A stretch of 64,000 nucleotides of DNA from a virus: IMG/VR virus record IMGVR_UViG_3300045988_096839. One strand, written 5' to 3'. The position numbers and the translations under genes are program-made. The notes below the pieces were generated by a model. The model had not been told where the DNA came from. It did not search any database and was given only the letters and a program-made list of their open reading frames with translations. Numbering within the stretch: position 1 is the first letter of the stretch; every line of letters begins with the position of its first letter. This document shows, piece after piece, positions 5,754 through 60,693 of this stretch.

Positions 5754-5776
5754 AAGCCCCGCTAAAAACGAGGCTT
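5754..5776 (-). terminator. putative intrinsic terminator of the GroES-like gene
   Basis: AAGCC...GGCTT hairpin. On the minus strand it is followed by a T-run (plus-strand AATAAAAAA at 5746-5753), 27 nt downstream of the 5803 stop. Confidence 0.45.
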
Positions 5777-5802
5777 AATTATATAGTAATATGACTATTA
5801 AA

Positions 5803-9024: not shown

Positions 9025-9119
9025 CAATTCTAAATCCATACTTATAGCAAATAACACCATCTGTGAAGATCGTGTTATTTATATAATTATCTCTACACTG
9101 TGTGAATCAGTGTCAACTT

Positions 9120-14630: not shown

Positions 14631-14819
14631 CATTTTGATAACGTTATGCGGTAATTTACCTAAAAAGTAGCAAGCAAAAAACTAATGGACCTGTATAAAA
14701 ACGTTGCCACAATGCTAGTTTTTACAACTTATTTGGTTTTATCTTCAACGTGGATTCTGTATAACAGGTGCTAATACTCAAACTATAGAGTAATACTTTG
14801 TGAGAGTATTAGCAGTAAT

Positions 14820-14945
14820 GGAATATTAGTTTAATGGTAGAACAAAGCGTTTCGAAAGAATCGATGATTATGAATAACATTAAATTCAGCAAGAACGAAG
14901 TTATTATAATCCGCTTGAGCATGGGTTCGATTCCCATATATTCCA
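14820..14945 (+). tRNA. tRNA gene with a 55-nt insertion inside the anticodon loop (anticodon TCG/Arg if the canonical 37/38 intron position applies; isotype uncertain)
   Basis: Acceptor GGAATAT/ATATTCC (7 bp); D arm GTTT-AATGGTA-GAAC; anticodon stem AAGCG (14845-14849) / CGCTT (14912-14916); variable GAGC; T arm ATGGG-TTCGATT-CCCAT. There are 62 nt instead of 7 between the anticodon stem halves. Confidence 0.6.
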
Positions 14946-15324
14946 CGTCCATAATACAATACAGTTGTTATGGTTTTGTAGTGATTTTAAAATGTTTCAC
15001 GTTTGCACCATGTAAAAATAAACGTGACTATACTATCCGAACCGAAGGGGACAAAAAATCAGAGTAGTGGTGGAGATGGGCTACTCAATTGGGGCTATAT
15101 GGTTTTGATTAGCGATAAGATATAATGAATAGGTCATATAAATTGTCTAAATGGCAATAAATTTGTAACAGACTACACTCGTATTGCAGCGTAATACGAA
15201 CGTATGAGGTGTTCGCTACCAAGAAACAGAAAAGCGTGAATTTCATCTGTGCCCGCGAGATGTAAAAAGCTAAGCGTTGATTTAGTTGTAGGTAAGCTGA
15301 ATCGTAAAAAATAAACCTAATGAG

Positions 15325-15394: not shown

Positions 15395-15426
15395 CATATT
15401 TAATCTAATTATCAAAATTAAATATC

Positions 15427-15621
15427 ATGAGAACTAAAAAACAAAAACAAGCATCTAGAAAAAATTTTGCATTATGTAGAGTAATAGGAATGCGTACAAA
15501 TTTAAAACAAATGTATAACCAAAATGAAAAAATAAACAATTTAATAAGACTTATATCATATAATCTTACTATTCTGAGTAATATGATATATGATTCTAAA
15601 ATAGAAGATTGGGATGAGTAA
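15427..15621 (+). CDS. possible small basic protein (64 aa)
   Basis: ORF just downstream of the tRNA with a Lys/Arg-rich N-terminus; it overlaps the next ORF by 8 nt. It could be spurious. Confidence 0.3.
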   Translation: MRTKKQKQASRKNFALCRVIGMRTNLKQMYNQNEKINNLIRLISYNLTILSNMIYDSKIEDWDE

Positions 15622-18312: not shown

Positions 18313-18392
18313 AGAGATTAATCTTTTGTTTATATCGCCCTTTATTTATTAACCAATTAACCAAGTAATTAACATTTAAAACCATTATCAAA

Positions 18393-24709: not shown

Positions 24710-24782
24710 ACTTCTGTAGCTAAACTGGAAAAAGCATTACACTGATAAGGTAAGATTATGGGTTCGAATCCCGTCAGAAGTC
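24710..24782 (+). tRNA. tRNA-Ile (anticodon GAT)
   Basis: Acceptor ACTTCTG/CAGAAGT; D arm GCTA-AACTGGAAA-AAGC; anticodon arm TTACA-CTGATAA-GGTAA (A31/G39 mismatch; the loop is identical to E. coli tRNA-Ile GAU); T arm ATGGG-TTCGAAT-CCCGT. It ends 16 nt before the PolB ATG. Confidence 0.75.
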
Positions 24783-24798
24783 CTAAATTAGGAATTAT

Positions 24799-36308: not shown

Positions 36309-39300
36309 TTAATTCTTTTTAGCCAAAAAGTCGAACTCATATTGAATATTCTCTAAACGACTAAGCTGTCTATAGATAGGAATCATTTGTCCAATAGAAT
36401 ATAACAATTTATTTTCCCCATCATTTTTACCAGTAGTATATACATCTGTAGGATGCCATAATCGGTCATACAATCGACCTAAATTATCCACAGCAGACAT
36501 AACTGGAAACGGATTCTGAATAATCTGTGTAAATGACCAAGGATTAAAATAAAATGAAAAATCGGTATAAACACGATATAATTGATAAGCTATGTTCATA
36601 TAAACAATATCAATACCTTCATCGTCATCACCTTCAGCCAATCCTCTAAATACATTAGATAATACATAAGCTGATATAACAAGTATCAATTCTGTAATTG
36701 ATTTTTTCAAATTATTTTTTTCATCGGTTGTTAACTAATTCCATCTTAAAGCAGTACGTTTATCTCTATCCAATTGTTTACCTAAAGCAATTTTGATATT
36801 ATCAATAGCAGGATTATAAAACATTTCTTTACTTATTCTAAGTAATGTACTGTGATATCCTTCAATCCATTCACCACGAATATTATCGTAATATCGTTTG
36901 CTAAAACGTCTTTGGAATGAAGTATAAATCCATTTACGGAACATAAGTAATAATTTACCCCATATGTACTATTGTATAGCAACAGCCCATCTACTATTAT
37001 AGTTACCGTGCATACCCATTAAAGTAGATCTTACTCCCATACTGAACTCATTCATTCTTTTTTCATCAAAATTGGCTACTTTATCGTCTACAACTAATTC
37101 TCCGTTTTTATTAAAACTAAGATAATCAATCATACTACCTAACTCATTACCATTTTTATCTATAGCTTTTAATTTGTATAAAGCTGCTAATAAAAATCTT
37201 GTTTGAGTTAATCTTTCACCAATATTAGTAGTCCAGTAAGCAGCATCTGTAGTAAATAGTCTTTGTACTCCTTTTGCTCTTAAATTAGGATCTCCTGCTT
37301 CATAAATACCAAACCAATCCACTAATTGATTTACAAAATCTTCTGGTACTCTTCTACCAATATCAGCTAACATACTACCTGATATAAGATGTTGCCCAAA
37401 CAATTTACTAGCTTTTAACATCGATTTATGGTCTATCCAACGACTACCAAAAGCTTCAACAAACTGATTTAATTCTGCAACAGTTAAGTTATTAATCATA
37501 CTGATGTAGTTGACACCCATAACACGCATAGAATAATATTTCATTATTGTTTTGGCAAGTTTATCTACAGATATGTTACCAATTTCGGTATTAGTACGAA
37601 TTTGATTACCGTAGAACACCTGATCCAACCATGAAGCAAATAATTTATATGTGTTTTCAGATTTGGTAACAGCTTTTTCTTGTTTACCTTGTAATTTACT
37701 TAGGATTGAAACATTTTGTGTTTCAGTAGATCTATTCTTCAATATTTCTGCTGTCATTAACATAAAATCTTCAATCTAAAGTTTTGCTTGATGCTCTAAT
37801 GCGCTGTGTAACCATCTTGCATAAATAGTAGGTAAATCAAATGATTGTAAATCCAAATTCAATCTTTGATTATAAAACAAAGGAATTTGATTTACTACGT
37901 TACCATTCATATCGGTAAATACTTGTCCAGTCATAGCATCATCTTCTACTAGCATAGAAGCTTCTTTTGCATACTGAACAACTCCGTCTTTAACACCTTT
38001 TACACCATCTTCTGATACTCTTTCTACAAATTCTTTACGTATACCAGGTAATCGATAATTCAATTGTAATCTTGAAGATACACCTTTATCACCAATATCA
38101 TTAAGTTGTTTAAACATCTCCCATAATCGATATTTTACATCATTACTTTGTTTTAATTTCTATAAATTATCATATTTCTTATTAGGATATTTTGAACTGT
38201 TTATAACACGATATTGTTCTAACAAATCATCATATGCTTCATTTATACGATCGAACTGTTCCAGACTAATGATATTTTTATCTCTAAAATATTTCCAAGA
38301 TTTCTTATCTTTACCTTCTGCTCTTATATTCTTTAGTATTTTATTTTTATCACTGTCTTTTAAGTCTGATACTATTTCTTTAACAGCTTGTTCAAATTCA
38401 AACAACAATCCTTCTTTATCAATAATTGGCGCATTTTCGTCATACCATTTTTCAATGGCTTCTTGTCTCTACTAAAAAGTAAGTGAATGGTCGTTGTTTA
38501 ATTCCGTGAACATTTTTCTTCGAGCTACTACAAAAGAGTTAGGCACCTCATTAACAAGATATGCTTGACCATCTACGATTTCGATCATATCGTCGTATAA
38601 CTTTCTATGATCTGACCAGTTACCACCTTTATATTTTTTCTCATATTCGTCAGTCAATTTTATCATTTGACGAACTAATACTTGATATTTATGATCAGCC
38701 TGTTGTGTTTTCTCATCAAATATTTTTACGGCTGCTTGAACAAATGGATCTCTTGCTTGAAAAACATTACCAATATTTGCAGCAATTGTACTACATTCAA
38801 ATATATCATCGGCAACTCGTTTCTGACGATTCAACCACGTTGCAGTCTCCTCATCAATTTTATCACGTATTTCTTCTATTTTATTATCGACCCATTTTTT
38901 CATATCTTTTTCATCTACTCGACGATTATTTTCTTTATATTGCCTTTCGAACTCTAATCGATAATTTGCTTCTATGTTTTTAACATAAGGTGTTACTGCG
39001 TCCATATATAATCTTGAACCAATATCCTTATACGATGATATTATAGATCTTTGTAAAGTAGTTACCTCTTTGATAGAATCTGTTAATGTTTCGTATTCTT
39101 CTTCTGTAAAGAATGATTTAAATCTCTAAACGAAACCAGCAATATCATCAACCATATTAAACGATAAAGCCAAATCTCGATAGTTTCTAAGATATACCAA
39201 ATCCCATGTTACTGGTTCAGCATTTCTTTTACTTTCTTGAGTGTATTTTCTATCTATTTGTTTATATACTCTAGATAATTGGTCTATAGCAGTAATTAGA

Positions 39301-41687
39301 TACTGCATCATAGCTTGAGCTTCAGATGCATTACCTATCTAATCTATTTGATATTCTATAGTTTTAGCCTAACTACGTCTACCAGCTCTTCTTTCAATCT
39401 GAGCTTTATTCTACAAAGATTTAAGAATATCACTTATTATTTCTCTAGCAATATTCATTCTACTTTGCGCATATTCTTGGTTAAGTTTATCATCTTGTTC
39501 TCCAAAAACTTTAGTCTTTATATCATATTCCACTGCTTTTTGTCTTTGGATATGAAATACTCCTAATTTTGGATCAACTTCAAAACTACCCATCTTCTTA
39601 CTAAAGAAAGCCTATTCTACAGTTTGTGTTTTACTATTATATTTATATACTATAGGAATAATACCTCTTTCATCAATTTGAACACCATAACTATTCAGTA
39701 TATGTTCATATGCACCTAACTGAAAATCATAAGCGTTTGTAGCAGTTTTAGCACCATTCTTTGACTTATTTACATAAGAGAATCCCCATAAACGTTTACC
39801 ATCTTTATTTTCAGTCTTACCGTCAAGTTCTATACATTTTGTTTTATAGTCAAATATTGCAAATTTACCAGTTTTTTTATTCTTTAATAGTAAGTCAGTA
39901 GTACCAGCTACACCTTTTTCAAAATCAGCAAGTATTGCTTCTGTTGCTACTAATTCGTAATTTTCTGATATATTCTTATATATTTGCTCTAACTATTGTA
40001 ATGCTTTAGAACTCAAAGCTGCTTGTCTTAATTTTCCAGTAGAAACATTTATAATAGATTTCATAAACGCTTCACGACGATAGGAGCCATTGAACATGCT
40101 TTCCAATACAGCATGAATAGTTGTACCTATTATTCTAGAATCATCATTATACGATCTTTGATTTTCACTAATATCTGAATCATCGTATACCGAATATAAA
40201 AGATTCTACTTAAATGTTGATACAGCTGTAAGTGGCTATCCATTGTACATATAAGTATGAGTATCGTCATCGAACTGTATCTTATTCGCTATTTCTTGTA
40301 GTATTGCTCTTACTTTATTTATGTCTTTTACTCTGTCAGAAGCCTTCTAAAAGTAAATCTGCCCTTCTTTTACAATTTGTTGAAAAATGCCTGATTTTTT
40401 AGCTAAATCTTTTCTTTGTAAAAAAGAATTAGTCAACTACATCTACAATGCTAACTTCATTATAGGTTGACCATTAACTACTGCTTTTATATATTGCCAT
40501 AATTTTTTCCAAAAACCGTAAGCGTCACCTTTTTGTTTAACAACCTACTCACCAATAGCTTGTACTAATGCTTCTTCACTATCATACTTTTGTATAGCTT
40601 TTTGTACTATAGGCGTTTCTCTAAACATTTCGATGTATCTGTGAGCATATTCGTGTGGAAGAGTATCCGCTTGATAGTTATCAGATAACATTATAGTAAT
40701 TGCTTCCAAATCAGTAGTATCTATTCTACCGTATTCACCTTCTGGTAAATTCTGATGCCATAATACAGTTATTTCTGGAAATAATCTTGCCAAAGTATCA
40801 GCAATATGTTTAAACGTTCTATCTGTTATAGCATCTCTTGGAATATATGTTTTATTTTCTTTTGTTTGATGATAAACTTTTTTATTAGAATCTGGTATAA
40901 TATTACTATATTCGATCAACGGCTCTCCGTTTTCATCAACGGTTTTGGATATATTACTGTTTTTCTACCATATAGGAATATTGATTTTATCACCAGATTT
41001 TTTCTTAGATACTTGTCTTTCACCAACTTTAGAAAACTATTCAAATTTACCAAACTTATTTAAAGCGTATATACCATCTTCTGATAATTCTCCCCAAGTA
41101 GAGACCATAGAACCTCCAGGAATAAGATTTATTAACTATTTCCAAAGTATTTTACGTTCTTCGTAAGTAGAAGGTATTGAAGTTTCCCCTCTAGATGTGG
41201 TTAAACTTCCAGTTTTTTCAGTAGATGTTTTAAAATGAACAGAATAAAAATTATCTTCGTTGTCTTTAACCAATTCAAAATAACCTTTTTCATGTTGATC
41301 TTTTAGATAAATTTTAACGGCTCTATTTACTTTATTCGGATCATTTTTCCAAGGTTTTGGATATTCTTCAATATCAACTAAATTGTAATCAACTTTATTT
41401 TTATTAAATATATCATTAGACACATTCAACCAATCACCAAACCAATTTCTAAACTCGTCTGTAAACGTTTTAGCTTTAGCCCGAATAGCTAATACTCTAT
41501 CACCGTTAAAATGGTTTAGAAGGTCTGAAAACAGCTTAGAAGGCTATCCATTGGGTGCAAATTCCAGACCATAACCATTATTTTCTGACAGAACATAGTA
41601 GGCAGCGCTTTCGCTGCCCAATATGTCTGTATATTCATCCAGTTGTTTTTTAACTTCTGGATTTTTTCTTAATAAACATGTTGCCAT
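36309..41687 (-). CDS. giant late protein (1792 codons, TAG read as sense) with zincin-like HExxH motif
   Basis: Ten ORF-track fragments (36309..36710 to 41136..41429) share one frame, and every internal boundary is TAG. My hand check of all gaps found no in-frame TAA or TGA. The ATG at 41685-41687 is preceded by AAGGAG, and the true stop is TAA at 36309-36311. I counted 22 in-frame TAGs. HEYAH lies at 40641-40655. Confidence 0.75.
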
Positions 41688-41689
41688 AA

Positions 41690-44600
41690 TTATTTACACT
41701 CCTTTTCTCTTTTCTTACCATTTTCAGTAAGGTTCTTCTAATCAGTTTCAGTAATAATATTAGATGTTTTATTATTGGTAGTTTTATTATCTGCTGTTTG
41801 CATATCATCGTTGTTTGCAGTAATTAATAATACCTATGCACTAAACGGAGAATTACCATTTTCATCATTGTATTTTGTATCCATTGGACTTACAAATCCT
41901 GCAGGTTTTGCACTTTCTAAGAACTGAACATTTTTTGGGAACGCGTCTATAATTTTCTGCATTTGTTCTTTAGATGCACTACCGATTACTGCTACTTTAG
42001 CTTTAGGATAATTCAACTTACCTTTAATAGAATTAAAATGTATGAATTGTTTATCTTTAAATTCGCTATACTTAACCATATTAGAAGCTTCTCTAGACGC
42101 ATTACCATCATCTACATAAACAACAATATCAGCAGCATCTATTGTAGCTAAATCAGCTTTACCGTTTCCTAATTTACTTAATAATTGAGAGAAATCCATA
42201 GAATCAGTAACAGGTATAGCTTTGTTTACTAATGTTTCATACTTCTTGTTTTCTTTCAAAGTAAGATCGATATCTTGTGAATTACTAAAGTGATCTTCAG
42301 ATTCGTATAACAATGATTTTACTTTACCATCTTGTACATAACCATCTGATCTTACTGCATAAGCTTGGAATTTAAAATTACGATAACCTAATCTTCCTAT
42401 TTTGTAATATACTGGATTAACATAAGTATTACCATCAGCAGATTTAGATGTTATCATATCTCCAATCTTATACAAATCATATAAACCAAGTTTGTTTTTA
42501 ACTTTAACGTATTTTGCGTATAAACCAGTGCTAAAACTTACTAATTTATTAGAACCTTTCTTAATAATAAGAATATTATTATCTCCACTTACAGGGAAAG
42601 ATCTATTATATATCTTACTATTAGAAATATCTTTAGCAAAATCATCATCGAATTGAGCCATCATTAACTCAGCAACTTCGATTATGTCATCGTTAACAAC
42701 ACTATCTGGTTTAGATAAGTTATTCATAAGATTTTCAACATAGTTGTTGTACGTTACTCCATTTACTTCCAAATTAGCTAACAACCTAGGTGGAACCAAA
42801 TCAAATATACTTGTTTTAGTTAAACCTGATGCATTAGTATCTGTACCACCAGTTATAAAGAACATGTAAACTGCCAAATCTTTAGCGTATTGTTGCAATT
42901 TAGCATCATCACTCTCATACAACTCTTGCCAAGCTTGAGTTATGTTTGCTTTGATATCAGTATCATCGCTAACTGCGCTATTAACATTAAAGAACTTAGG
43001 CGACCCAGTAGTTGTTCTAGCTGGTTTCAACATATCAAACAGAATTTTACCTGTATTAGTATATTCAGCTAATTGTTTCATTTCGTTGAATCTATCAACT
43101 ACTGTGTTATCTCCAGCAAGAAATTCTTTTAACGGTAATTGACTATTACTAAATTGTTTAGCAATATAAGCATTAAAGAATGTACTCAGTAAAGCAGTTC
43201 TTAATCTTTGACTAAAGCGTTTAACTTGCATTTTACCGTATGCTCCATAAATACCATATCGTTTAGATATTTTATCTATAGTATTCACATAACCTGGTGA
43301 GAATTCAAGTAATACTTTACTAAATATATTAAACAACGCTTTTACACCGAAATCGTATTTCTCACCTAAGAATGTTTTATCAAACAAATCTTGAGGATTA
43401 CTGAATGTAGTATTATATTCAGAAGAGAATTGTTCGTGAGATTGCATAAACTTAATGATATCATTTGCACTAATACCGTATTTACCAGTATCAATCTGTG
43501 CAGCATTTACCATTGTTCTATAATCACCAGACATTCTCTTAAGATACAAGAACGTATTCAAATATCTAATTTGTTGTTTATACCATTCTTCAGAGTCTGT
43601 TTTCTTGATATTGTTTCTAAGATTCTAAGCGCTCATTTCTTCTGGAGTAGCCTTATCGTTAGGATCATATACATAATCGTCTGGTAATTTATCCACGTAA
43701 TTCTTTATAATTTCCTGTAAATAATTTTCACCAGAAGCTCGTTCAGCATCAACACCTACTTGACCTTTCTTAAGATCTACATAGTTGTCTGCAACTTCAC
43801 AAATTATAGGTTGTCCTAACAAGTAATAAGTATCGTTACCCATACCGCAAGATATTAACATTGATACGATATCAAACGTAAAGTCATTTACATTCATTCG
43901 ACCAATATAGTTATCCTTAACGGCATCCACGAACGCATTAATCAATGCAGATGTACTATCTACAATACTTTCACCATTTCTATCAAATATTCTAGGAATA
44001 CCATTATCTTCCAAAGACAATCCTAAACTATTCAGATAATCGTTATCTTGTAATTTTATAGATGCCATCTGTATAAACGCTCTAACAACGTTATTCAACG
44101 CCATAGGACCGATACCAGCACTAGAACCTGCATTTTTAGTACGTTGCTCTATCTAGAATACAGGATTTAAGAACCATCCACCTTTTTTAGTTCTAGGATC
44201 TTTTGATACACCTTTCAAGTTGTCTATATCGTCTTTGATTGCTCTCAACGGGTCTGTTGTAACATCCAAAGGAGTAACAGTATCAACTCTATGATGTTCA
44301 TTGGTAAGTATTAAGAAATATATATCAAGTAGCACGTTCTGTAACTATTCGATTGACACAGAATCATCATTTAAATGATTTAACAAATTATTCAAATTAT
44401 AATCTATTTTCTGTGCTTTACCATCTTTTATTTTAACATTTGGTCTAGACAAGAACATCTTATCGATATCGAAGTCAGAACCAGTTAATGCAGTAATATC
44501 TGATGGGAACATTATAATATCACCTCTTTGTGGTTCAAATACGTCTACTACCTTAATAGGAATAGTTGAGTTCTGACCCTGAGTAGGTACACGATATGAT

Positions 44601-47600
44601 AAAGCAAACAATATACCTTGATTATCCAAAAGGAATTGTCTTTGAACGTCGAATGATTCGTTCTGTAATCCTGCTTCTTTTATTATATCTTCAAACAAAC
44701 TTATAGATAATTTTACTTCCATAAAACCATCTTCATTATATGATTTAAGTTTGCTATCAGCAGACATCTTATTTTTCAAGATGTTATCATAACCTACACT
44801 AGATACCTGGAATAATGGTTTACCTGGAGTCATAATCTTAATGACTGTCTTTTCCATCAAAGCTATGATTCGAGACTATATCCAGTTTATATTAGGTAAT
44901 GCTGAAGGATGTATAACATATTCACCATCTACAGCTGATAAAGCATCCATCATTTCAGGAGTAGCACCTTGAGTAGAAGCCATATCTTGTACAGCAGACA
45001 TGAATTTTTCTTTATTTACATCAAAAGTATTAGGATCGATACCAAATTTTCCGCAGAAAGTTTTATAACCTCTTAATGTCAAAGCATCCAATACTTGCTG
45101 ATAAATTCTTAACAGTTTATCTCCTTTTACCTATACACCGTTAAGTTTATAAGTATGTTTACGGTCAGTATTTAATATAACTACTTTCATAAACTGGGTA
45201 AGTAAAGCAGCTTTGTTATGTTTATGAGGATCAGTATTTAACTGTTTACCAAAGTTTTCAAATTCCTGCATTTGTTTTGGAGCATTTCTGAATGCTTCTT
45301 TGTCGATTTTACCGTCTTTATCATATAATTCAAAACTAGGTATATTTCCAGTCTTAGTACAGCTTTCCATCTTCATGAAATCAGTTTGTGTTTCTTTCAT
45401 TAAATCATAAACGTCTCTCATGTCATGTTCATCTGCAAATATTTTAAATATTGGAGAAGCAGAAAGCTTATCGTATATTTTAAATATATCTTGACTAGAA
45501 CTGTTAGCATCATTACCAAAGAATACATATTTTAATGAGCCCCATATATAATTTCTAGTAAATCCTAATATTTGACCACGATATTCTTTTGGAGAAATTT
45601 CACCAGATTTAAATTTGTTAAATAAATCTTCAATAGATGCAGTATCAATGTTTAATTGTTGCATCATATTTGCATATTCTGTAGGATTTATTTTCTTTAT
45701 TACATCTAGTTCATCATAATGTTCCAATAAGTCGTATGCGTATTCATCTTTAATGGACCATTCTCCTTGACGCTGTTTTAACTATCTGTACATCTCAGCA
45801 GATACCCACGATTGTGCATCAGTCGGATCAATACTACGATACTTAATCAATCTGATATAAGCGTTATCTGTAACTGCTTTAGCCAACTGTTCGTCAGTAA
45901 GTGGTTCACCTTTTTCGTTTACACCATAAGTTCTACGTTGATCTCTATGTTCTAGATATCTTTGAACAAGTTCACCTTTTTTAGCTTGTGGTATAAGATT
46001 TCCTTTACTGTCTAGCAGTTTCTTATAATTCAAACAATTATATTTTACTTTTCCGTCAAGTGTTTCAGGGACATTCAAACTTTCATCAAATGCATCTACA
46101 CCTAAGAATGTTTTTGCTTCACGCTTAAATTTATCCAAATCGTCCACAGGAGTAGTATTTACTTCTATAACACGATATTCTGAAGCATCGTACAATCTAT
46201 CTTCAGCGAAAGCATTAACTATTGTTCCTTTACCGTTTTTCATTGCAACTGTAGATGTTTGCGCAGAATAACGTTTGTTTACAGCATCAATATCTTTGTA
46301 TTGAGCTTTATCACCAGAAACAAGTTTTTCAAATTCTAGGTTATCACACATGTTGTTCATAACAAAGTATGCTACAGCTCTCATTATGTCCGAACTACTT
46401 AACTTCTTATTACCTGCTGGGTTTATTTTCTTATTATCAAGAATTACATTTTCCGGTAATAATTTATTCTATAGTTCCATCTGACCCAACGATTCAACGG
46501 GATTATATCCAGATATTATTTCTTTTGTATCTAAGAAATCCAATACCTGACGTATATTCCATTCCAACATATTTTCGATATATTGCTTTACTTCATCACG
46601 ATTTAACCATTGTTCTATTTCAGTATTAGTAGTTGATGCTGATATCTTGAAGCCATCTAACAAGTCGTTGAAATGTCTTGATTTGTACCCATTGTTTTTA
46701 GGAGAAACCAAATTTATACCAAAATTACGAACAGTAAATGTTCCATCTGGGTTCTTTATAGGATCACCACCTTTTTTACTATAGTGATAAGCTAATCGTA
46801 AATTTACAAGAAGTGGAGCAACATCTGGTCTCTTAAACAAAGCTTCTTGTTCTTCTTGACTCATTGCAGATATAGATTCTGCTGTGTATTTTTTACCAGT
46901 AGCTTTGTTTACAGCGTTAACGAAGTTATCTCTAACGATATATGCTTCCCTTATGGCTTCTAATTCAGATCTAAAGTATCCTCTGAAAGTATCAACAGCG
47001 TTCTGAGTAACCATGAATTTATAACCTATCTTCTGAATAGGACATTCTTCCATAGGAATACTATCTATGATGTACTGTGTCTTTTTATTAGCAAGTTCAG
47101 GTATACTATGGTAATTAGACAATGCTGTCGTGAAACGATTTAACATATCTTCTGTACCAGTAATACCCAAGAAGTCATTACTATTAAAATAATCACTATC
47201 ATTCACTGTACCAACAAAAGTACGCAATATAGGATAATTCTTCTTAGCTATAAAAGATAACCATTTTGAACCACGATATTTAACTTTCTTTCCATCCAAG
47301 AACTCCTTGGTATAAGGATTATTTGTAAATCTTTTTATGAAATCATTGTTAAATATTAATCTGTTAAAGAATCTAGTAACGTGATTATACTGACCAATAA
47401 TATATGCAGTAGCACCCCCTGCTATTCTTACTGTGTCGTTTTTAGCACTACCTAAGCCTTCACTAGCTAATTGTTCCATTAATAAGAACAATAAAGTATT
47501 ATTATCAGGATTAAATTGATCATTAACGATACTACTTATTTCTTGTTTAGATGTTAACAATCGTTTAGCGAATAGTGAATTCTTCATTTTAAGTAAGAAT

Positions 47601-50600
47601 CCGTTATATGATGCTAACAATTTATCTTTTTCTTTTCTATCAAGTTTTGATAGCATTTTATCTACTTCTGTAGCATCTATATCCAATCCAAAGAATTCAA
47701 GAGCTTTAGCTACGTTTTGACCATTTAATACTGCAATTCTAGCTTTCTTACTTACGTTTTCAATATAGAATTTCTAGCGATCTTTTTCATTCAACTAATC
47801 AAGTTGAACTTCTATTCCAGATATTACATCTATTATAGATTGTTTCCACTTATTTTTAGCTGTTTGATTACGCTTATTCTGATTTGAATCTTCAATACTA
47901 GCTTCAATACCACCTTTGTCGTTAATACGATAATTCATAAATATGAAATTATTAACGTATTTAACAACATTACCAAACAGTCTTGCTTTTAATTGTTCTG
48001 TTGTTTCAGGATCTTCCAATATATCAACAACTTGTTTTATAGTCTAAGGTTGACCGTCACGTTTTTGTTGTCTAGCTACTTTCTTAAGGATGGAAATCAT
48101 ATCATCCACATCCTTAGCTTGTTGACAAGCATGACACAACTCATGCCATAATTGATATACGTTTGTATACTTTTGTAAACCTTCTGGAGTAAGTTGAGTA
48201 TCATCAGTAATAGTATAAAGGAATAATCTTATATCTGCATCCAATGATTTATATTGGTTACGCATATATGCTGCAACAATAGAATCATCATTCTGAATGG
48301 TTTTAGTCATACCGCTTTCATCTTTTGGATTCTTTTCGTTTTCTTTCAACCATTCTTCATAATCTGAGAAATCCAAATCGTTAGCATCATCAATAACGTC
48401 TAATGAGAAATTCATACGAACGGCTCTCTTCATATATTTTTCCCAACTCTTCCAATTAGTAACAATTCCTTTTGTTACTTTTTGATAATTGAGTGCTGCC
48501 ACTAAAACAGATTTATCTTTTTCACCAGATTTTAATACAGCTTTAACCATATCTTCTGCTGTTTTAGCTTCATCTTCCCAGTATTTTTTAACTTGTTTAT
48601 AATCAATATTAGTAATACCTGCTTCATTGGTAGTTATTCCTGATGATCTGATTATAGAAGCTAATATATTTCTATAAATATCGTTAAACTGTTGTTGTGT
48701 TGTAGCAATTTCAACACCGTCATATTTATAACCACTAAATAATGGGTCATAACCAAATACTAAGTCAAAATATTCTTTATTTTCTTGGCTTACTTCAGTA
48801 TATGCATATTTTCCTTGATATATATCATTAAATATAGAATTTAATGAATTTATACCATTACGTTTAGTTCTACTATATAATCTATTTATCAACTTATTCA
48901 ATGATTGATAAATTCTATTAAAGAACTTATAAAAAGAATTATCTTGATTTTGTCTTAGTACAAATTTAGCAAATTCATCTGCAAGATATTCTTGTTTTTC
49001 TCTTTCAGATTTATTTCTAAATGAAGGATTGCTATCGATCAACGCTTCATACATAGCTTGTCGTTGATTTTTAGGCATCAACAGTATTGATACTCTATGG
49101 AATGCTTCATGATAAGCAACACCTCTCTTTATTTTGTTCTTCTTAGCATCTCTAAACAATCTGATACCATTTGATGTACAAACACCGTATACATATACCA
49201 TAGCGTGTTTAGCAGCGTCAAATCTAAACGGTAACGAATTATCAATACTAAAATCAAAATCTTCACCCAATATTTTTTTAGCAGTGTTTATTGCTTTATC
49301 GGCATCTTCCATTCTAACGAAGTTTTTAAAGAATGAAACTACTGCTTTTTCTAGTTTGGATTCAGAATCTTTTTTCTTATTATCATAATTCTTTAATACT
49401 GCACCAATCTTATCAGAATTCTAGAATAATTCCGCAACTTTTTCAAAATTATTAGGATATCTATCAGTTATTAAACCGGTATATGTTTCTTTTAGTTGAT
49501 TAATTCTCTTTGAAACATCATCTGTAGAATCATAATTAGGTGTAGATAATATTAATATTTGAATAGTATCTTCTGTTATATCCTCTAATAATTTATCTAT
49601 TTGTTTGTCATCTAATTTTTCTGATTTTTTATCTGTTTTAGTTTCAGTTTTAACTTCACCTTTTTTATCAACGACATTACCAGTTAAATCAAACAACGGT
49701 GATGCTTGTTTTTTATCCTAAACATCTGGTGTAATACCCAAACCAGGACCATTAGTATCAGGATTAGAACTTGCTGTAAGATTAGGATTTGTCAAATCTA
49801 CAACATAATCTTCTTCATCGCTACTGTTATTCATCCAATCTTCATAAGTATCGTCAACGAAAGAATCAGATAAATTTAATTTATCTTTATTATCGTCATA
49901 ATACTTTTGAATTTGGTCAAATGTTTTTTGAGGATCGGTTTGATCTTTAGGTATAATCAAAGGTTGTAATTTATTTTTATTTTTTGATTCAACTTTTTTA
50001 TCTGCTTTCTAAGTAGTAGCTTTTTGTTTAGCTGGATTAGCAGGCGTTTCTTCTTCCTGATTGTATGATAATATTACTTTACTTTCACCGTCAGCTATTA
50101 TCTCAATAGTAATAGGTTTATTGTTTATAGCCAACGTTGCTAATTTATTATCAAACTGCAATGGATTATAAACACTACCATTGTTATCAAAATCAACTTC
50201 GTAATTCTTTCCATTAATCTTGATAAACAACGTATCAGGATCTGTATCTTGAACTATTTGTTTTATCTCTTCTTTATATTCGTTTATGATTTTTACGTTT
50301 TCGTCATCGGTAGATGCGCGTTTTGAAGTTTTCTTTATCTGAGTTTTCGCTTTTTCTGCGCTATCTTTTTTCTTTGTAGTAGTTTTAGTGTTTTCCTCAG
50401 TCATTCCTTCAAATACGTCATTGAACTCAAAATATACGTTAGGATTACCACCAAATATAGTAGAATCCTCTTTTGTACTCATATCAGTTTTAACAAATCC
50501 ACTGTTTACTACTTGAGATATGTAATTATCTCCATCTACTTGTTCGTAAACAATATTTCCAGAATCATCCAATATAGTAAAAGAACCTTGTACTAATCCG

Positions 50601-53600
50601 GAATCACTAGATAATTTATCCTTATCTATTCTATAATTCTTAGTAGTAGCAATCCAATTTGCAAATTCTTCTATATTATCAGTTGTTACTTCTGTACCTT
50701 TACCATCTAAAGTATTACCAAAATAAACATGACCATCTTTTATATATACAAGTCTGTCCAAATTGTGATTACTTGGATTTCGTTCAATTGCTTCTGTACC
50801 ATAATACATGAAGTTTCTGATAAATTCACCAACAGATATCTGTTTGTCAACTTTCAAATTCTTATTCATTCCAGAATTAATCATCTGCTCTTCTGAAATA
50901 GAACCATCAGCAACTTTAACCATTAAATCAGCAATAATTCTGGCAATGTTTATATCTATCTTACCAGGGTTTAACTTAACTAAAAGTCTTTGTCTGTTAG
51001 GATTAAAGAATGATGGTAATAACAAGTATACAGATCCAGCTGTACCAGTAGCGCCTTTAACTGATTCCATTTTTCTAGAATGTGTATCAAAACGCATAAT
51101 AGTACCATTTGCTGTAGCATAAGCTAATACCAAAGGTTCAGAATCTTTTCCTTCGAAAGCATCTTCTATTAGATCTTCTATATCTTCTTCTTGATCAGCA
51201 TATTTCTGATATAATTCACTTAATTGCTTTTCTTTTTGCTGTTCTATAAACCATTCTACAACTGCTTTACTTTGTCTTTTTACAGCAGGTTGATTTGGGA
51301 AAGATTTATTATAATCATTCAATACTGTCTAATAGTCAGTATCATAAGCAGACATTAATTGTGATATTTTATCAGATAATTTACCTCTACCATTCAATAT
51401 AGATAAAGCGTTATTAGCAGAATCTTCTACTTGTTTTTGTTCAACTGTTAATAAGTCTTCATCTTCAGTATCTTCATCCTGTTCTTTATTTCTAAGTTTA
51501 TCTATATACGTACGGTATTTATTCTTAGAATAATAGAATTTTCCACTAGCTTCATCGTATATTAAGCCTAAAGCTTGTACTTCATCAATATTTGAATTGA
51601 TAACTTGTTTTCTACGATATGATATTAAACTGTTTCCTACAGGTACACTATCATTACTTGTAAGTACATGTATTATATTACTTGGATCAGTAAGTCTATT
51701 AAACTTACGATTGATGAAATAATCTTTTAATATTCTTTCAGTAGATTTATTAAAAGATAAACCTCTATTATTAAGATTGTCTATGAACTCAGATACGCTC
51801 TAATAGTTTTTAATATCGTCTTCAATTTGTTGACATATTTCAACTATTTCATCCCTTGTTCTATTATCTAATACTAATTGTTCACCATTGAGTTTAATAG
51901 GTAAACGTATTTTCCATCTATTTTGTAAAGCATCTTCTACTTGTGCTTCAGTATTCAAAGATTGCCCACCATCTTCACTATAATTCATGAACAGATTTGG
52001 AGATTCTGACAGCATTTGTTCTACTATAGAATTAGCTAATTTTTGATTATTACCTGCTTTTTTGGTATCAGATGATAAACCAAATATAGGTTTGATATAA
52101 CTTTTTATAAATGTTTCAGGTAATATTACAGAATCACCTAATTCTGATATACCACGTAATAGATAATTTATCGTACCGTATTCCTATTCATTTACTGTTA
52201 TGGTTTCTGGCAAATTATCAACATTATAACCATACTTTTTAACAATATCGATTATATTGTCGATATTTACATTTTGCTATACTTTTTCTGTCTATACGTG
52301 ATTATCGTAGATATCATTTATCTGTTGTCTACTTACTAATTCATCATTCTCGTCATACAAAAGAGGATTATTTGGATTAGCTTCATCTCTAGTATTCTAT
52401 AAGAAAGTGCGCATATAAATTCTTACAGAGCCTTCTTTAATGTTTAAAGTTGGCTGAGCATCACTATCATCCTTCTGTCTTTGAGCAAGATTCATTATCA
52501 TGTTCTCGCGAAGGTTGAATTCTAATTCAGATAATACATTTTCTCTATTACGTGATGTTTCATCAGGCATTACCAATCTTGTAGGAATCAAAGTACCGTT
52601 AACAGTACGTACTCTACCGTTAAATAATACGGTATTTATTGGTAAAGCTCTAACCATGTTCTAATATTGAGCCTTGGTTATAGTAGAATGCTTTCCAGAC
52701 TTAATTTGATTGAACAAATTAAATATTTCTTCTTTTGTCTTACCTTTAGTAAGACGAAGAATCCTTTCATAAGTCTTATATGCAGCAGGTCTATCCCACT
52801 TTATTTTACTACCTTTTTCACTCTTCTTATTAGCAAAATCGTAGTCTTGTACTTCTTCCCATTTTTGAACAGTAACGTACCCTCTCCACTGACTTGATTG
52901 ATTATATGGGTCCATCAATCTATTTGCAGCAGTAACTCCACTCTTGGTACCAGTAAAAGCATATGCGTGGCACTTCAATCTTTTCTTATTTTCTTGTGCA
53001 GTTATTTCTGCTTTTTCAGCATATTCTGGAGTAAGGTCTTGTGTACCAGATGTAGAATCAGGTACTTCTTCTACCGTTCCTTCTTCAGTAGAATCTTCTC
53101 TTTTCTTGTTAGCAGATTCAATTGCAGCATCTACCGCCTTTTGAATGTTTTTTAATTTACCTTCAAAAGTTATTGTTTTTCCTTTATTATCTGTTCTTTG
53201 TAATTTACTCAGATAATCCTAATCTTGATTCAATCTGAATTCTACTATTTTAGAAGTCTAGGCATTCAATAAATCCTATTCAAGATTTTGAATATGATTG
53301 TTTGTTGTTTGTAACTGATTTTGTAAATCTTTTATTTCATCTTCTTTTAAAGAATCATTTGCTAACTGTTTTACAATCTTCTTACGATCATTTTTAAGAT
53401 CTTTTATGTGTTTTCTGATATTATCGATATCCGATGTATCAGTAACATCCATTGCTTTAATTATGCCACCTTCGTCAATAGAAAATTCTGAAGATCTGGG
53501 TAAAAATTTATATTTTTTACCATCTGGAGCAGACCATTCTTGAGTATCGATAGGTAAAGTAAGAGTATTACGTTTTGCATTATATGCTCTATCGCTAGCT

Positions 53601-56600
53601 CTTTTGTTAATTTCGTCAGCAATGTTTTTAGCTTGTGCAGCAATAGTTTTTAATTCGTTATATACTTTCTAATCTTCTTCTGTAAATGAGTCTTTAGGCA
53701 TTTTTTCTAATTGTTTAGTAAATTTATCCAAAGATCTATTTACATAAGATACTTTACCTGCTGCGCTACTAATGGTATTTAAACCATTTGTTAATCTATT
53801 AACAAATTTTTGTAATTCTGTATCACTTACAGCATTATTTAAAGATTCAATGAGAGTATTTACAGAATCGTTTAATTGATTTTCAAGTTCTTCATCAGTT
53901 CTAGCTTTAAACTCCTGTGTTGTTTCAACAGTTTGACCATTAGAGTCACTATTAGCGTCATCTCTTTCTTGAGACTGTGTACGAACACGATCTTTATACT
54001 TCTCAATTAAAGACTTAGTAGATTTGTCACCTTTTTCAAAAGGTTCATACAATTTAGTAAAATAATCCAAGTCGTTCAATTCAGCAATATAATTATCTGA
54101 TGCTGCATTAACATCTGAATCGCTAATTTGATTATTACTGAGTTCTGTTACTATATCTGATGTAGTTTGTTTAAATCTATTAATCGCACCTGTTTGCGAT
54201 TCTATATTCTTTTGAGCTTGATTTATTTTACCTTCAAGATACGGAATCGATAACAATTGTCCTTTTGATCCAATTGCATAGCCTTCTTCTGATTCTCTAG
54301 CTTGTTGAATAAGATTATTATATACTTCTAATTCAGAATTATACAATTCCAAAGTATCATTTAATTCATTCAGCTTACCGAATGCTTCCAATTGTTCAGC
54401 AATTTGATCTTGTAGTATTCTTTTTTGCATGAGCAATTTAGCTTTTCTAGAAGACATTACACCTTGTAATTCTGCCATTGCCACAGAATTATTTGCGTAA
54501 GACATATTCATCTTCTTAAGTAACTGAGCTCCATACGCTTGGTTAGATAATTGTTGCGATTGTCTTTCTATAGAATTAAGCTGTTGATTAATCTTTGCTA
54601 ATTGTGTAGTAAGTTTATGTATACCTTCTATTTGAGAATCTTCTAAAGCAATACCGTGTTTGGCAACAGCGTTTTGAATTACATTATACATAACATCACT
54701 AAACAAAGATGATTCTTTAGATTTTTCATCAAATTGCCTATTAAATTCTTTTCTGGCTTCTTCTTTCTTATCATTCTGTTCGGTAATATTAGTTCTGATA
54801 TTGTTAGCTATTGCTGCATATATATCGGAATCTCTTTCACTTAAACCTAAAGCTTTTGTTTTTTCAGATAGTTGAGCTCTGGTATCTAACAATTGATCAA
54901 TATTTTTACGTTCTTCATTTATATAATTATCAATTTGTTCTTCAGTTGTTTCACCTTTAGCATCTGATATTACCCCTAAATCGTATTTACCTGTTTTTAG
55001 TGCTTCAGAAATATTATCTAATACTTGACCATAGTTTTTACCATTTGCTTTTAAGTCACGCATTGTTTGCAATAAATCTACCGATCTATCAACAAAATCT
55101 TGTTCTTCAAGAGCTCTCTAGAATATATCTCCAAATCTCTTATCATTCTTCATCTGCTTACGAACATCAGCAAGTAAGTCTTTACCAGACATAACCAATG
55201 CTCTTGGATCCAAAGATGAAAGTATCGCACCCGACATATAGTTCTCTTGTAGTTGCGCATCATTAGAATAAACAGGATCGAATGGAGTAAATACAGCAAT
55301 AGTAGATCTTTGTCTATCTAACCAGTTGGATGACATATCATCAAACAACTGACCGTTAGTCAAAGCATTCCAAAAACTACCACTAGCACTCTAATCATCA
55401 AATTCTCCTTTTCCTGCTTTGTCAGCCATTATATACTGAGCACCTTCTTCAGTTGCTTCTTCATACATATTAGCTAATTGTGCAGCACCCCATGATTTTA
55501 ATGCTTTGTTTCTAGTTATTCTTGATAATTCTTTACCAGTAAGAGCAGCTCTGGCTACATCTGCGTTTGCTGCAGCTCTTCGGCTTAACAGTGATTTAAT
55601 AGGATTTGTTGCTTTTTTACCTAAAGCAAAAGCGCCCTCCATAGGATTCAATGCGCCTCTGAACACTTGACTATTTCGGAAGAACGGTACATAGAACAAC
55701 ATATCTGTTGCTACTTCACCGGCTCCTAAAGCCATATTACGTTCATATAATCTAGGTATACCTCTATATGCTCTACGTCGTGCATCTTCAAACTGATTAC
55801 TACCGGAATCAATAGTACCGTTTGCAGCCAATTCTAAAGCTTCTTCATCAGAAATATTAGAATTTTCTCCTCTACTAGCTAATTGTCTTTTAACGTTTTT
55901 TATTACTCGATCAGTATCAATTTTATCTTCTTCTAAGATTTTAGATAAATTTTGTTCATACTGTGAATAAGCTTCAATATCTGATTCTCCTTTTCTAGCT
56001 TGTATACCACCACCAGCTTGAGAAGCTGCAGAAGCTGTTAAACCAACTATTAAACCTCTAGCTAAACCGCGTAAACCACCAGCAACAGCACCAGGTGTTC
56101 CAGCCATAGACGCACCTAATAACGCATCTGCTGCTACTGCCGTTATCGCACCAGAAGCCATAGACGACAATTGATAAGCCCAATCAGAATGAGAACCACC
56201 AAACAGTCCTGGTAATTTATATAAAAAGTTACCAAACGTTGTAGTAGATTCATTAGCTTTTTTAGTAAAATATTGGCTTATATCATAGTTATCTAAAGAT
56301 TCTTGTTGTTCTCTTTTATTTATTTCTCTAGACTGAATAGCATTGTTGTATTCTCTATCTGAATCAGTTTGAATATCAATTAATGATTGTAAATCAGGTA
56401 ACTGTTTATTTGTCCAAACTCCATTTTGTCGTAGTGCATCTAATCTAGATTGAGCTAAATCTCTAGCTTGAGATCTATCAATACCGTAAGTATTATAAAA
56501 ATCTTCGTCAGAAATTGTTTCAGGATAAAGATAATGCATAACCAAAGCTGCATCGCTTTTATTCATTTCTGCACGGTTAATACGGTTATTATCTCTGGTT

Positions 56601-56833
56601 ATCTACGATTCTTGCATATCATTATAGTATTTATGCCAAAAATCGGATAACTACATTCCTTGTACGTTATCCGTTGGTGCTTCATTATAATAATATGCAG
56701 CATCTGCCGATGACTATCTATTAAGATAAGCACCGGCATTCTATCTCATTGCTAAATTTTGCTGTATACGATCATTCAATAATTTTGAGTCTCCCTCTGA
56801 ATAATCGCGTAATAAATCTTTTTTAGTATTCAT
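41690..56833 (-). CDS. giant late polyprotein-like ORF (5047 codons, TAG read as sense) containing a virion RNA-polymerase-like DxDxD motif
   Basis: Nineteen ORF-track fragments (41834..43561 to 55391..56566) share one frame, and all boundaries are TAG. My hand check of every gap found no in-frame TAA or TGA. ATG at 56831-56833, TAA at 41690-41692, about 32 in-frame TAGs. DFDID lies at 44462-44476 and HEAFH at 49097-49111. A coiled-coil segment spans 53.7-55.1 kb and a Gly/Ala-rich segment about 55.9-56.2 kb. Confidence 0.7.
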
Positions 56834-56843
56834 ATTTTTTAAA

Positions 56844-58712
56844 TTACATTAAACCTGCTGTATTATGCGGTAAACCAACCATGTAAGAATCTCCACTATC
56901 TTGGTATCTTACTGAATTTTCTGATTTAGTTGTACCCATATATTTTTCAGCTTGCATGTTAATTAAATTTCTGGTATCATCTGTTACTGGTTCTACTACT
57001 AAAATAGTAGTTTCTACATTACCTTCATCATTATCTGTGGTGGTAGAATATCCTAATTCTTTTAACTAATCGTATTCTCTACCTGTAAACCAAGGAACCA
57101 TTGAATCAGGTAATGCATCTATTGGATATTCAACAGTAACACTCCATGCTAACTCTTGACCGTTTGGAGTGTTTTGCATTGTTACTCCGTTTACACGTTT
57201 TGGTATAGCTCTAGATGGATTTTTAGTTATTGCTTTTTCCAAATCGAAATTTTTATCTTCAGAAAATGGAAAACTACTTGTTAAGAATAAAGGGTTGGTT
57301 GTATCCAAGCCCTAGCTCTTTATAAAATCTTTCATATAAGGATTACTAAGAACATATTGTCTAGGAGTTAACAATTTTCTACCGCTCAAAGTAGGATTGT
57401 TGGAACCGAATAATCTCTGCATATCTACATCAGAATAACCTTGTGTTGGAGTCATTATAGATTCTACAGCTTGATTATACATTTCTTTAACGTATGGCGC
57501 ATATTCAGATTGATTAGAAAATTTAATAGATTTCTTTTTACCTTTTGCTACACCAGCTTGTTTTCTTCCTGCTTCAGATAATCTCCATAGAACGTCGTCC
57601 CCTACTTCTCCCTACTCGTTAATTAGATCACTATTGACAAAAGCTCGTTTCATTCCTTCGAACATTATGGCAGCTTGCATTGCCATGTTATATCCGCTAC
57701 TATCATTTTTAGAAGCCATTTCAGCAGCTTTTCTAGTAAGAACATTTTGATTTGCTGGTTGTTTCTTTAAAGATATTTGTCCAGTTTTTTCATCTGTATC
57801 AAAATTTTCAAGCATCTTTCCGGTAACCACCCTACCTGCATTTTGTACGGCATCCAATGAACCGTATGCTAATCTATCGAAACGATTAACAATATTAGAG
57901 GGTGTTTCACTACTACCTTTACTACTTAATTTTTTTAATTCATAAGGATTAATAGTTTTATCTTCCCATGAAAATTCTCTAGCTCGATTGATAGCCATGT
58001 TTGCAAATTCTTGCTCTGCTTGCTCTCTAGTAAGACCTGCTTTTTGTAATTGTCTAATGTGCTCTTGCGCTTGAGGAGTATTATAAATAGATGACCAATT
58101 TTGCTGAACCATTTTATCAGTTGTATCAATAGATACGCCTCTTACATCCCAAATTCCTTCACTTCTTAAATAAGAAGGCTTTAAGTTATCAACATATGGT
58201 TTTACTAAATCATTTATTGATGTGTATGGTATTGGATTAATATCAGAGAAAATCTTTCCACTACCTAATGTATCGTACTATGATACATCCAAATTATGCC
58301 AATTAGGATTAAACTAATTTGTTTTTATTAAATAAGCTACAGCCTCATCTCTTTTTTTATAAGCTTCAGCACTGGATATTAGCATATTTAATTTGTCATA
58401 TGGAATATTGTTGATTAACGCTGTTATTTTTCCACGACCTTCTTGAGTTTTTAGCATATCTGGATTGTTGACCATTTCATTAACTAACGGTTTAGCTACA
58501 CCAGTAGTCAAGTCATACCAGTTTTGCATATCTTTCAAAGAGGCAGATTTAAAGCTATTCCATACTTTCATATTATCTGATAGAGTTTTCATTGCTGTAT
58601 CAACTCTATCATTGTACTCTTTACCTATTTTATATAACTATTCAAAAGGTATTGGTACATATTGACTTACGTACTAACTTTCTACCGGTTTATCAAATCT
58701 ATTTACTGCCAT
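56844..58712 (-). CDS. late/virion protein (622 codons, TAG read as sense)
   Basis: Fragments 57066..57308, 57612..58112 and 58314..58592 are in one frame. ATG at 58710-58712 and TAA at 56844-56846, with 7 in-frame TAGs, the first at codon 13. Confidence 0.7.
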
Positions 58713-58713: not shown

Positions 58714-60693
58714 TCATCTAAAATTTCTATATAATTTATTTACGGTATCTTGTGTAGAACCATAATTGAAAAACTCTTTCATATATTCCAACATTGCTTG
58801 ATCTCGATTATTCAAACGATTATCACGAGACATTGATTGCAAAGCTGTACCAAGTTGACTGAGATCAGTATTACGAATGGTTCGAGCAGCTGCTCTATTT
58901 TGAGCATCTTCTTCATATCCTCTATGGAATGCTTCAGTATTATATCTAGCCCTATCGTTATATATACCAATGTTTCTAGCTTTTCTTTCATTTTCAATAT
59001 TATTCTTCTGATTATATGCTTGAGCGATAGCTCTGTTTCTAGCAACTTGTGATTGTACGGCTTGTGCCAAATTAGCACTTCTACCAAACCCACCTGCCTA
59101 ATTAGCATTATATCTTGCAATAGCATTGGTCATATCTATTTCTCGTAATATTGGACTGATATCATAATCTACTGGAGCAAAATGTGGAGAATAAGTAAAT
59201 ACTCTTGCTTTTTCAGGATCACTATTATAAATGTTAGCCATTGGTCCTATTAATGCAGCACCATTAGTTAATATATCAAATAATGATCCATACGATCTAT
59301 CATTACCATTATTAGGATTAGTATTTCTCTTAGGAATATTTATTTTCCCAGGACCAGTATAAATATAATTATTTGTGAAATTATGGTCGCCTATTTTATT
59401 CTATACACTGTAACTCTATCCACTAATAGGTACTTCAATATTATGTAAAAATGAACTTCTAGAACGTACTGGAGCAACACTATTTGCTTCATCCGTAAAA
59501 GGAGTAGAAGATATGTCAAAGTAATCATGTACTTGTCCATACAGACCATCCTGAACATTCTTAACTACAGCATCTTCAAATGACATACCGGTTTTTAAAT
59601 TTCTCTGTATTTGTGGCAAATCGCTTAATGTTTTGTAAGCGTTATCGTAATTATCTTTGTTTTTTAAAAACGTACGTATGGATTCACCAGCTTGTTTATA
59701 CGCATTCTTATCAGCACTTTTGTACCAAGAAGTTGTAGCGCGATTTCTGTCATGACGTATATTTGGATTATAATTGGGGTTAACTCTAATAAACAACTCA
59801 TTAAGTTTATCTCTATCCTCAGCACTAGTAACAGGTTCTGGTAATCCAGGTGTACCTCCTGCATATTTACCAACTTTATTCTTTATTCCTCTTTTAGCTT
59901 TTACTTGTTCTTGTAAGGCAAGTAATTCATTATATTTTTTCTAATTATTACGATCATTTAGCATTTGTGTATTCTGCGCATAAATATCGTTTCCTTTTTT
60001 CTTACCTGTTTTCATATACTTTTTACCAGCTTGTGCAAAAGTTTCATTAGTTCCTGGAACTTTTAATTTATCACTTAATACCTAAGTTCCAACAGGAACA
60101 TTAACTAAATTACTATCTGTAGGTTTTCCTTGTTCAGGAATTTGACTTATTTCTCCATCTGGGGTTCTCATTAATTCACCATCATCCAAGTAAGCTAAAG
60201 TAGTTGGTAATATACCTCCGTAAGCAGCTAAAGAATAATCATTATCACCATATTCATTAGCCCATTCTTCTTGAGCAGCTGCAGTAGCGTTAGCATCAGC
60301 AATACCTTGATTCACCCTTCTCCATTGAGCTCTAACTCTATTTCTACTACGTCTGCCTTTAATACCTTTACCTTCGATATATTCACCAGTATCAGTATTG
60401 ACAGAATCAGATGTACCAACCATAGCGCCTATACCTTTTGTTAACATACCTGCAGCTTTACCAACTACGCTACCAATTGGACCAAAGGCACTACCTACTG
60501 TTTCTAATCCAGTAGCAATACCACCAGTAATAGCATCTGTTTTAGCATTTCCACTAGAAGGTATTAACCCGTTTCCTAAATCTAATCCTGCACCTACTGC
60601 ATTTCCTAATTTATTTAATTGACCAGTAGCTTTATCAATTAATCCTCCTAAAAAGTATGAATTTATATCTTTATTTTTTCTTATTCTTTTCAT
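58714..60693 (-). CDS. late/virion protein with Gly-rich N-terminal region (659 codons, TAG read as sense)
   Basis: Fragments 58714..59070, 59416..59796 and 60082..60693 are in one frame. The ATG at 60691-60693 overlaps the upstream TGA (ATGA). The gene's own stop is TGA at 58714-58716, with 5 in-frame TAGs. Confidence 0.7.

Follow-up and report, generated by a model that had tools for sequence, protein, structure and literature searches.

In the crAss-like phage phi14:2, early genes are transcribed by the virion RNA polymerase (RNAP) gp66, and three separate standard-code genes follow one another in the order gp67, gp66, gp65 along the direction of transcription. In crAss001, gp47, gp49 and gp50 have been detected in virions by mass spectrometry, with gp47 and gp50 encoded as separate genes on opposite strands. 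A fused form has also been described, which the literature calls a 'single huge polyprotein', and a 2023 review gives RNAP genes of 'up to ~6000 aa'. Recoding of TAG to glutamine in the late genes of crAss-like phages is likewise published and is confirmed by metaproteomics. Here we analyzed a 64,000-nucleotide stretch of viral DNA (IMG/VR record IMGVR_UViG_3300045988_096839; this whole stretch is called the window below), in which a giant gene on the minus strand, at 41690-56833, fills the positions of both gp67 and gp66 and is followed by a gp65-like gene, as in phi14:2. We consider it likely, with a probability of roughly 0.85, that this is one late gene of a Suoliviridae-type crAss-like phage in which TAG is read as glutamine (genetic code 15), and that its product is a single ~574 kDa chain joining a gp47-like half to a virion RNAP half.

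The frame of this putative virion cargo protein fused to an RNA polymerase runs from an ATG at 56831-56833 to a TAA at 41690-41692, and contains 5,047 sense codons, 32 in-frame TAG and no TAA or TGA. An earlier sequence-only reading of this DNA had proposed exactly such an uninterrupted frame, and counting codons in the three frames of that strand bears it out. From the base composition of the strand, ~335 TAA/TGA codons would be expected (P ~1e-150 for zero), and the other two frames of the same strand contain 256 and 709. TAG itself is rarer than chance in the giant frame (32 versus ~106 expected). The calculated mass of the protein, with TAG read as glutamine, is 574 kDa.

In-frame TAG is restricted to the minus-strand block at 36309-64000, where five long frames contain 81 of them, and plus-strand genes at ~8-36 kb have 0 TAG in 4,473 codons. 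Within the late genes, TAG accounts for 12-22% of glutamine codons. We compared the window with relatives at three distances. The closest, IMGVR_UViG_3300045988_126168, is ~99% identical across window positions 36904-59333; over the giant frame the two differ by 141 synonymous and 52 non-synonymous codons with no new TAA or TGA, and all four TAG changes between them are TAG/CAG exchanges (codons 77 and 1519 of the giant gene, codons 447 and 1356 of the downstream gene). At the intermediate distance, a metagenomic scaffold (L007; ENA ERZ28613591 scaffold_2671) encodes a protein that is 37-57% identical and collinear with residues 5-5046. By translating TAG as X to avoid bias, we found that 12 of the 48 alignable window TAGs lie opposite glutamine in L007 (background 4.2%, P = 5e-7), as do 26 of 77 L007 TAGs in the reverse comparison (P = 4e-16), while TAGs common to both number only 6 of the window's 54 alignable ones. 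In the standard-code genome cr1_1, 28 of 29 alignable window TAGs face sense residues, with an enrichment of glutamine (P = 0.014). Because of these relatives at three distances and the TAG share of glutamine codons, we conclude that the giant frame is a single gene under purifying selection in which TAG encodes glutamine, and the recoding fits the published late-gene pattern of crAss-like phages.

By homology, the C-terminal half of the giant protein is a crAss-like virion RNA polymerase (aa 2796-4832; 42338-48448, minus strand). It matches the structure of phi14:2 gp66 (PDB 6VR4) with E = 8e-33, the stretch TGSDFDIDKM being aligned identically, and the catalytic DFDID (aa 4120-4124; 44462-44476) is the same as gp66 1361-DFDID-1365. 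The alignment takes in gp66 residues 1486-1674, which hold the conserved bridge helix (1529-1559) and trigger loop (1598-1636), and RNA polymerase profiles extend over gp66 residues 192-1683; blastp also matched it to gp66 and to crAss001 gp50. This collinear homology to gp66 would place two double-psi beta-barrels in one chain. The sequence-only reading had taken the DFDID motif as the signature of two-barrel and crAss-like virion RNAPs, and the structural match agrees with it; apart from a trivial slip in coordinates (44462-44476 is DFDID, and the seven-residue SDFDIDK to which it assigned them occupies 44459-44479), its placement also stands. The polymerase is followed by a weakly conserved C-terminal tail (aa 4881-5047; 41693-42193), for which profiles had 19 targets; among named relatives it was detected in L007 only, and there only in part.

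Directly before the polymerase lies a zincin-like domain (aa 2513-2741; 48611-49297, minus strand), recognized by conserved motifs and a borderline profile match. Its HEAFH motif is at 49097-49111 (residues 2575-2579), where the earlier reading had put it, and Glu2615 (48989-48991) follows 36 residues past the second histidine within the motif E-Y-L-A-D-E-F. Both histidines, the HEAFH glutamate and the equivalent of Glu2615 are invariant in an alignment of 23 diverse sequences from two crAss-like families. crAss001 gp47 ends in this domain as well (profile E = 1.5e-35), whereas phi14:2 gp67 is without HExxH. The best natural match in PDB profile searches was the M34 gluzincin PPEP-1/Zmp1 of C. 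difficile, with E = 0.16 and then 0.044, both borderline; in the deeper search a designed protein ranked marginally ahead (E = 0.043). In the PPEP-1/Zmp1 register, HEAFH lies opposite the HETAH zinc site and E-E-x-L-A-E-x-F opposite the third-ligand helix E-E-F-F-A-E-S-F, the arrangement of HExxH and a third-ligand glutamate helix of M34/lethal-factor-like gluzincins (also ATLF, PF07737). At the level of motifs the domain thus appears zincin-like and weakly resembles the lethal-factor type. What had been called a zincin-type motif is a conserved site with a conserved downstream glutamate, and the zincin fold around it is putative.

To estimate how common the fusion is, we used the zincin-like domain as the anchor of a census in IMG/VR, in which 80 loci were kept of 260 confirmed relatives. 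The HExxH...E pattern was present in 73 of the 80. In 59 untruncated loci the anchor and DFDxD lie in a single frame, 3,145-5,897 codons long; two more frames, truncated at the end of the locus, exceed 6,290 codons. Among the 59, 22 use the standard code with no TAG and reach up to 5,364 codons; one further truncated standard-code frame has at least 5,571. Profile searches show a collinear domain order across relatives. GenBank-annotated Suoliviridae have proteins of the same kind at the same gene position and with the same neighbors: the giant and downstream proteins have 4,551 and 2,007 aa in cr1_1 (QOR58537.1), 4,491 and 1,803 aa in cr4_1 (YP_010112556.1), and 4,493 and 1,845 aa in cr115_1 (YP_010113062.1). 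Their middle domain, zincin-like domain and RNAP are collinear with those of the window, although identity is only 25-31%, and the window protein is ~500 residues longer in its N-terminal half. Like the window, cr4_1 uses in-frame TAG (38 of them), whereas cr1_1 (Culoivirus americanus) uses the standard code and its giant gene has no internal stop of any kind. The fusion, which the sequence-only reading had regarded as exceptional, is therefore the norm in this clade, as the census, GenBank and the literature all indicate, and on sequence comparison the giant gene is a divergent new member of the described Suoliviridae-type fusion. Closer relatives were found only as unannotated metagenomic contigs (MT835645, ENA ERZ28613591 scaffold_2671 and IMGVR_UViG_3300045988_126168). 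A megablast search of GenBank phages gave no match to the queried DNA, and two word-indexed protein searches with the zincin region as query returned short fragments only, four from 5.8 billion proteins and 1 in the other search, which did not suffice for a deep alignment.

For the N-terminal half, a domain map was drawn from iterated profile searches against relatives and from simple sequence analysis (all features on the minus strand). A conserved N-terminal domain, N1 (aa 55-613; 54995-56671), was recovered by an iterated profile in 49 local-database sequences including the window's own; in most giant frames it is close to the N-terminus, and in a few it starts further in, at residue ~270-430. 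Loci L055, L057, L068, L076, L081, L083 and L085-L087 combine N1, the zincin-like domain and RNAP in one standard-code frame of 4,187-5,364 codons, and the iterated profile did not detect N1 in cr1_1 or cr4_1. PHROGs and Pfam scans of the giant protein in four tiles of ~1,300 aa gave nothing significant, and N1 had no match there. Within N1, a Kyte-Doolittle scan marks two hydrophobic Gly/Ala-rich segments (aa 222-246 and 249-267; 56033-56170) as candidate membrane-inserting helices, and comparable N-terminal hydrophobic segments are found in MT835645, phi14:2 gp67 and crAss001 gp47. The Gly/Ala-rich stretch noticed earlier is real, as residues 201-300 are 35% Gly+Ala.

N1 is followed by a long alpha-helical, heptad-periodic region (aa ~620-1290; 52964-54976). 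In a heptad test against shuffles, 27-86% of residues per 100-aa bin exceeded the threshold for a/d periodicity over aa ~600-1300, versus 5.8% in shuffles. The region is poor in proline and consists of Gln, Glu, Lys and Leu to 31-42%. A single-sequence AlphaFold model of aa 601-1054, used for secondary structure only, is made up nearly entirely of long helices (38-68 residues) at low confidence (pLDDT 52). The coiled coil of ~470 residues proposed earlier thus corresponds to a heptad-periodic helical region that is longer, at ~670 residues. Beyond it, the middle region N3 (aa 1303-1843; 51305-52927; profile hits in 23 sequences including the window's own) is conserved only in closer relatives, and the conserved middle domain N4 (aa 1891-2137; 50423-51163; 45 sequences including the window's own) is present in cr1_1, cr4_1, MT835645 and L007. 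A charged low-complexity linker (aa ~2150-2500; 49334-50386), assigned by composition, is poorly conserved and had no profile matches even among close relatives.

The RNAP of phage N4 is a T7-like single-subunit polymerase. N4-like (Schitoviridae) virion RNAPs have ~3,500 aa and the tape-measure-fused RNAP of P23-45 has 5,002 aa, and both are described as giant virion-carried polymerases that are ejected into the host for transcription of early genes. P23-45 resembles the window by that description in that a two-barrel RNAP is fused to a structural or ejection protein; its partner is the tape measure, unlike that in the window. In the crAss-like giant protein, the N-terminal half would correspond to crAss001 gp47 and, judged by gene position, to phi14:2 gp67, while crAss001 gp50 matches the RNAP part and gp49 the downstream gene. 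Because homologous proteins occur in the virions of phi14:2 and crAss001, we propose that the giant protein would be made late in infection and packed in the capsid as cargo, that it would enter the next host by ejection, either before the DNA or together with it, and that its polymerase part would then transcribe the early and middle genes, which lie on the opposite strand and are free of TAG. Hydrophobic helices and a long helical region would be expected of a protein with an ejection or channel-associated role.

Several points weigh against this reading. The support for the giant protein in the phage of the window is at the level of sequence and homology. No sequence similarity between the N-terminal half and phi14:2 gp67 was detectable, and this half is tied to crAss001 gp47 only via the zincin-like domain; iterated profiles built from gp67 and from the N-terminal 2,100 aa of gp47 did not reach it. 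The zincin assignment itself draws on the motifs plus a profile match of borderline strength; Pfam had no family for the domain, and an AlphaFold model from a five-sequence alignment was too poor to test the fold (pLDDT 46), although both motifs fell in predicted helices. Finally, the 64-kb window has no suppressor tRNA(CUA), the only tRNAs found being tRNA-Leu(taa) and tRNA-Ile(gat), located at 8939-9025 and 24710-24783. Given the 81 late-gene TAGs, the amber suppressor must therefore be encoded elsewhere in the genome or be supplied by the host; recoded crAss-like genomes in which no suppressor is detectable are noted in the literature.

Under the standard code the giant region falls into 33 pieces, the longest of 596 codons, and this could result from a non-functional frame, that is, a chance opening, or a region with genuine TAG stops that has decayed or been mis-assembled. 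Such an origin is effectively refuted: the absence of TAA and TGA is far beyond chance (P ~1e-150), the excess of synonymous codon differences (141 versus 52) points to selection, many relatives have full-length collinear homologues, and the catalytic motifs of the frame are intact. We give it a negligible probability. The TAGs could also be leaky stops or gene boundaries, as the sequence-only reading had suggested, which would yield nested shorter products in a ratio set by the level of suppressor. The lack of a suppressor tRNA in the window would suit this, as would the position of 4 of the 32 TAGs within the first 77 codons (0.63 expected in the first 100; P = 0.004), since translation before the suppressor appears would abort early, in line with the published proposal that recoding controls when late genes are expressed. 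However, standard-code relatives have the same collinear protein without any stop, only 6 of 54 alignable TAGs are common to the 37-57% identical relative, and TAG and CAG interchange between ~99% identical genomes, codon 77 included. Five TAGs lie within the gp66-aligned polymerase core; one of them, codon 4163, falls after the catalytic motif but before the bridge helix, so that termination there would leave the polymerase inactive. There is no TAG at the junction of the two moieties or within the zincin-like domain. Leaky boundaries are accordingly improbable, and the four-TAG N-terminal cluster, which may be due to chance or serve as an early gate on translation, is the sole hint favoring a regulatory role. 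These four codons (31, 40, 61 and 77; window positions 56603-56743) are unevenly matched among relatives: some have such a cluster (locus L012 has 6 where 1.3 are expected) and others lack it, and the ~99% identical relative carries CAG at codon 77.

A true polyprotein, from which cleavage after translation, packaging or ejection would yield a gp47-like piece and a free RNAP, would be a refinement of the single-gene reading and does not exclude it. The cut would possibly be made by the protein's own HEAFH domain or by the zincin-like domain of the gp65-like neighbor. The invariant HExxH...E sits just before the polymerase, at the very point where crAss001 has a gene boundary (the C-terminus of gp47), and the 350-residue poorly conserved linker precedes it. 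Drobysheva et al. suggest that such fusions are 'likely cleaved' and that the RNAP may be activated by a zincin-like domain. However, the zincin-like domain of the literature is that of gp65 orthologues, i.e., the downstream gene, and is other than the HEAFH domain; no cleavage site or processed product is known, and the zincin fold of the HEAFH domain is putative. We consider cleavage possible but on the unlikely side. More doubtful still is a combined scheme in which the HEAFH...E domain would work in cis as a maturation protease, releasing the polymerase or switching it on once the protein has been packaged or ejected, with the TAG cluster in the first 77 codons serving as a translational gate until the suppressor appears.

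With the giant gene read as one recoded frame, the consequences are mainly for annotation. Under the standard code this 15-kb gene is broken into 33 fragments, and only parts of it appear in protein databases and in the output of gene callers, whereas code 15 restores an intact virion RNA polymerase fusion and yields a domain map of its poorly understood N-terminal half. The conserved HExxH...E at the seam offers a concrete mutational target for the published idea of a cleaved polyprotein. General knowledge of crAss-like phages is unchanged by the finding.

The sequence-only reading had named relatives split by TAA or TGA at positions corresponding to TAGs as a finding that would refute the single fused gene. 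We found none among the relatives, and the few breaks observed are explained otherwise. In L007, apparent frameshifts were considered as real recoding and rejected, as every frame switch coincides with a 100-N scaffold gap (5680-5780, 13778-13900, 15423-15528 and 18378-18477); one gap lies over the DFDID site, a trap for automated annotation. In L065 (IMGVR_UViG_3300045988_063132), L038, L039 and L061, the RNAP frame is broken by an insertion of ~1.0-1.4 kb exactly inside the catalytic DFDxD. The L065 insertion (14373-15305), directly after 'DFD', matches the Rfam group I intron RF00028 with E = 4e-9 (43 bits, below the gathering score of 50 bits) and carries a 233-aa open reading frame (ORF) with motifs that look LAGLIDADG-like by eye; the exon after it continues as in the otherwise same, intron-less twin L064. 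The split in L065 was therefore rejected as a gene boundary in favor of a group I intron within DFDxD, and the shared insertion position suggests the same for L038, L039 and L061, the intron-model scan having covered L065. The giant gene of the window has no insertion in DFDxD. In L050, a single in-frame TAA at nt 13865-13867 replaces a CAA of the near-identical twin L049 and shortens a TAG-recoded giant gene, which reflects either a defective variant or a sequencing error.

The downstream gene (36309-41687, minus strand; 1,792 codons, 22 TAGs) is a homologue of phi14:2 gp65 and crAss001 gp49 according to homology and motif. Its protein matches gp65 with E = 2e-41 (C-terminal part), gp49 with E = 6e-32 and the cr4_1 downstream protein with E = 5e-178. 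The second zincin motif noted earlier, HEYAH at 40641-40655 (residues 345-349), was recovered there as a conserved site with a downstream glutamate: P-H-E-Y-A-H...E-E-x-L-V-Q-A is kept in ~30 relatives, and the HExxH begins at residue 345 in the window, 342 in cr4_1 and 245 in gp65. The counterpart of this region in cr1_1 matches Pfam ATLF (lethal factor) with E = 1.5e-5, below the curated cut-off, and the window's own HEYAH region gave nothing significant in Pfam. The literature places a zincin-like domain in gp65 orthologues, and judging from these matches the HEYAH domain is that domain. A hydrophobic segment at 36630-36704 (aa 1662-1686) lies ~110-130 residues before the C-terminus of the downstream protein, and a C-terminal-proximal segment of this kind was present in all gp65/gp49-like proteins examined (phi14:2 gp65, crAss001 gp49 and the cr1_1 and cr4_1 downstream proteins), which suggests a conserved membrane anchor of this putative cargo protein.

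Upstream of the giant gene are two late genes on the minus strand, one of 622 codons with 7 TAGs (56844-58712) and one of 659 codons with 5 TAGs (58714-60693), both syntenic with genes of cr1_1 and cr4_1. The four-gene late block as a whole is syntenic with Suoliviridae, with two genes of ~600-700 aa upstream and the gp65-like gene downstream, and is convergent with the replication module. This module makes up the plus-strand block and encodes a DnaB-like helicase, AAA_24 and AAA ATPases and a metallophosphatase, with a Thy1 gene on the minus strand. The replicative helicase is 55-64% identical to helicases of Suoliviridae (delta-group) crAss-like phages. Two ORFs of the early/middle region, at 18369-19826 (plus strand, 485 aa) and 24787-26649 (plus strand, 620 aa), had no Pfam match, and the first of them sits in the most GC-rich stretch of the window (0.376 versus ~0.30).

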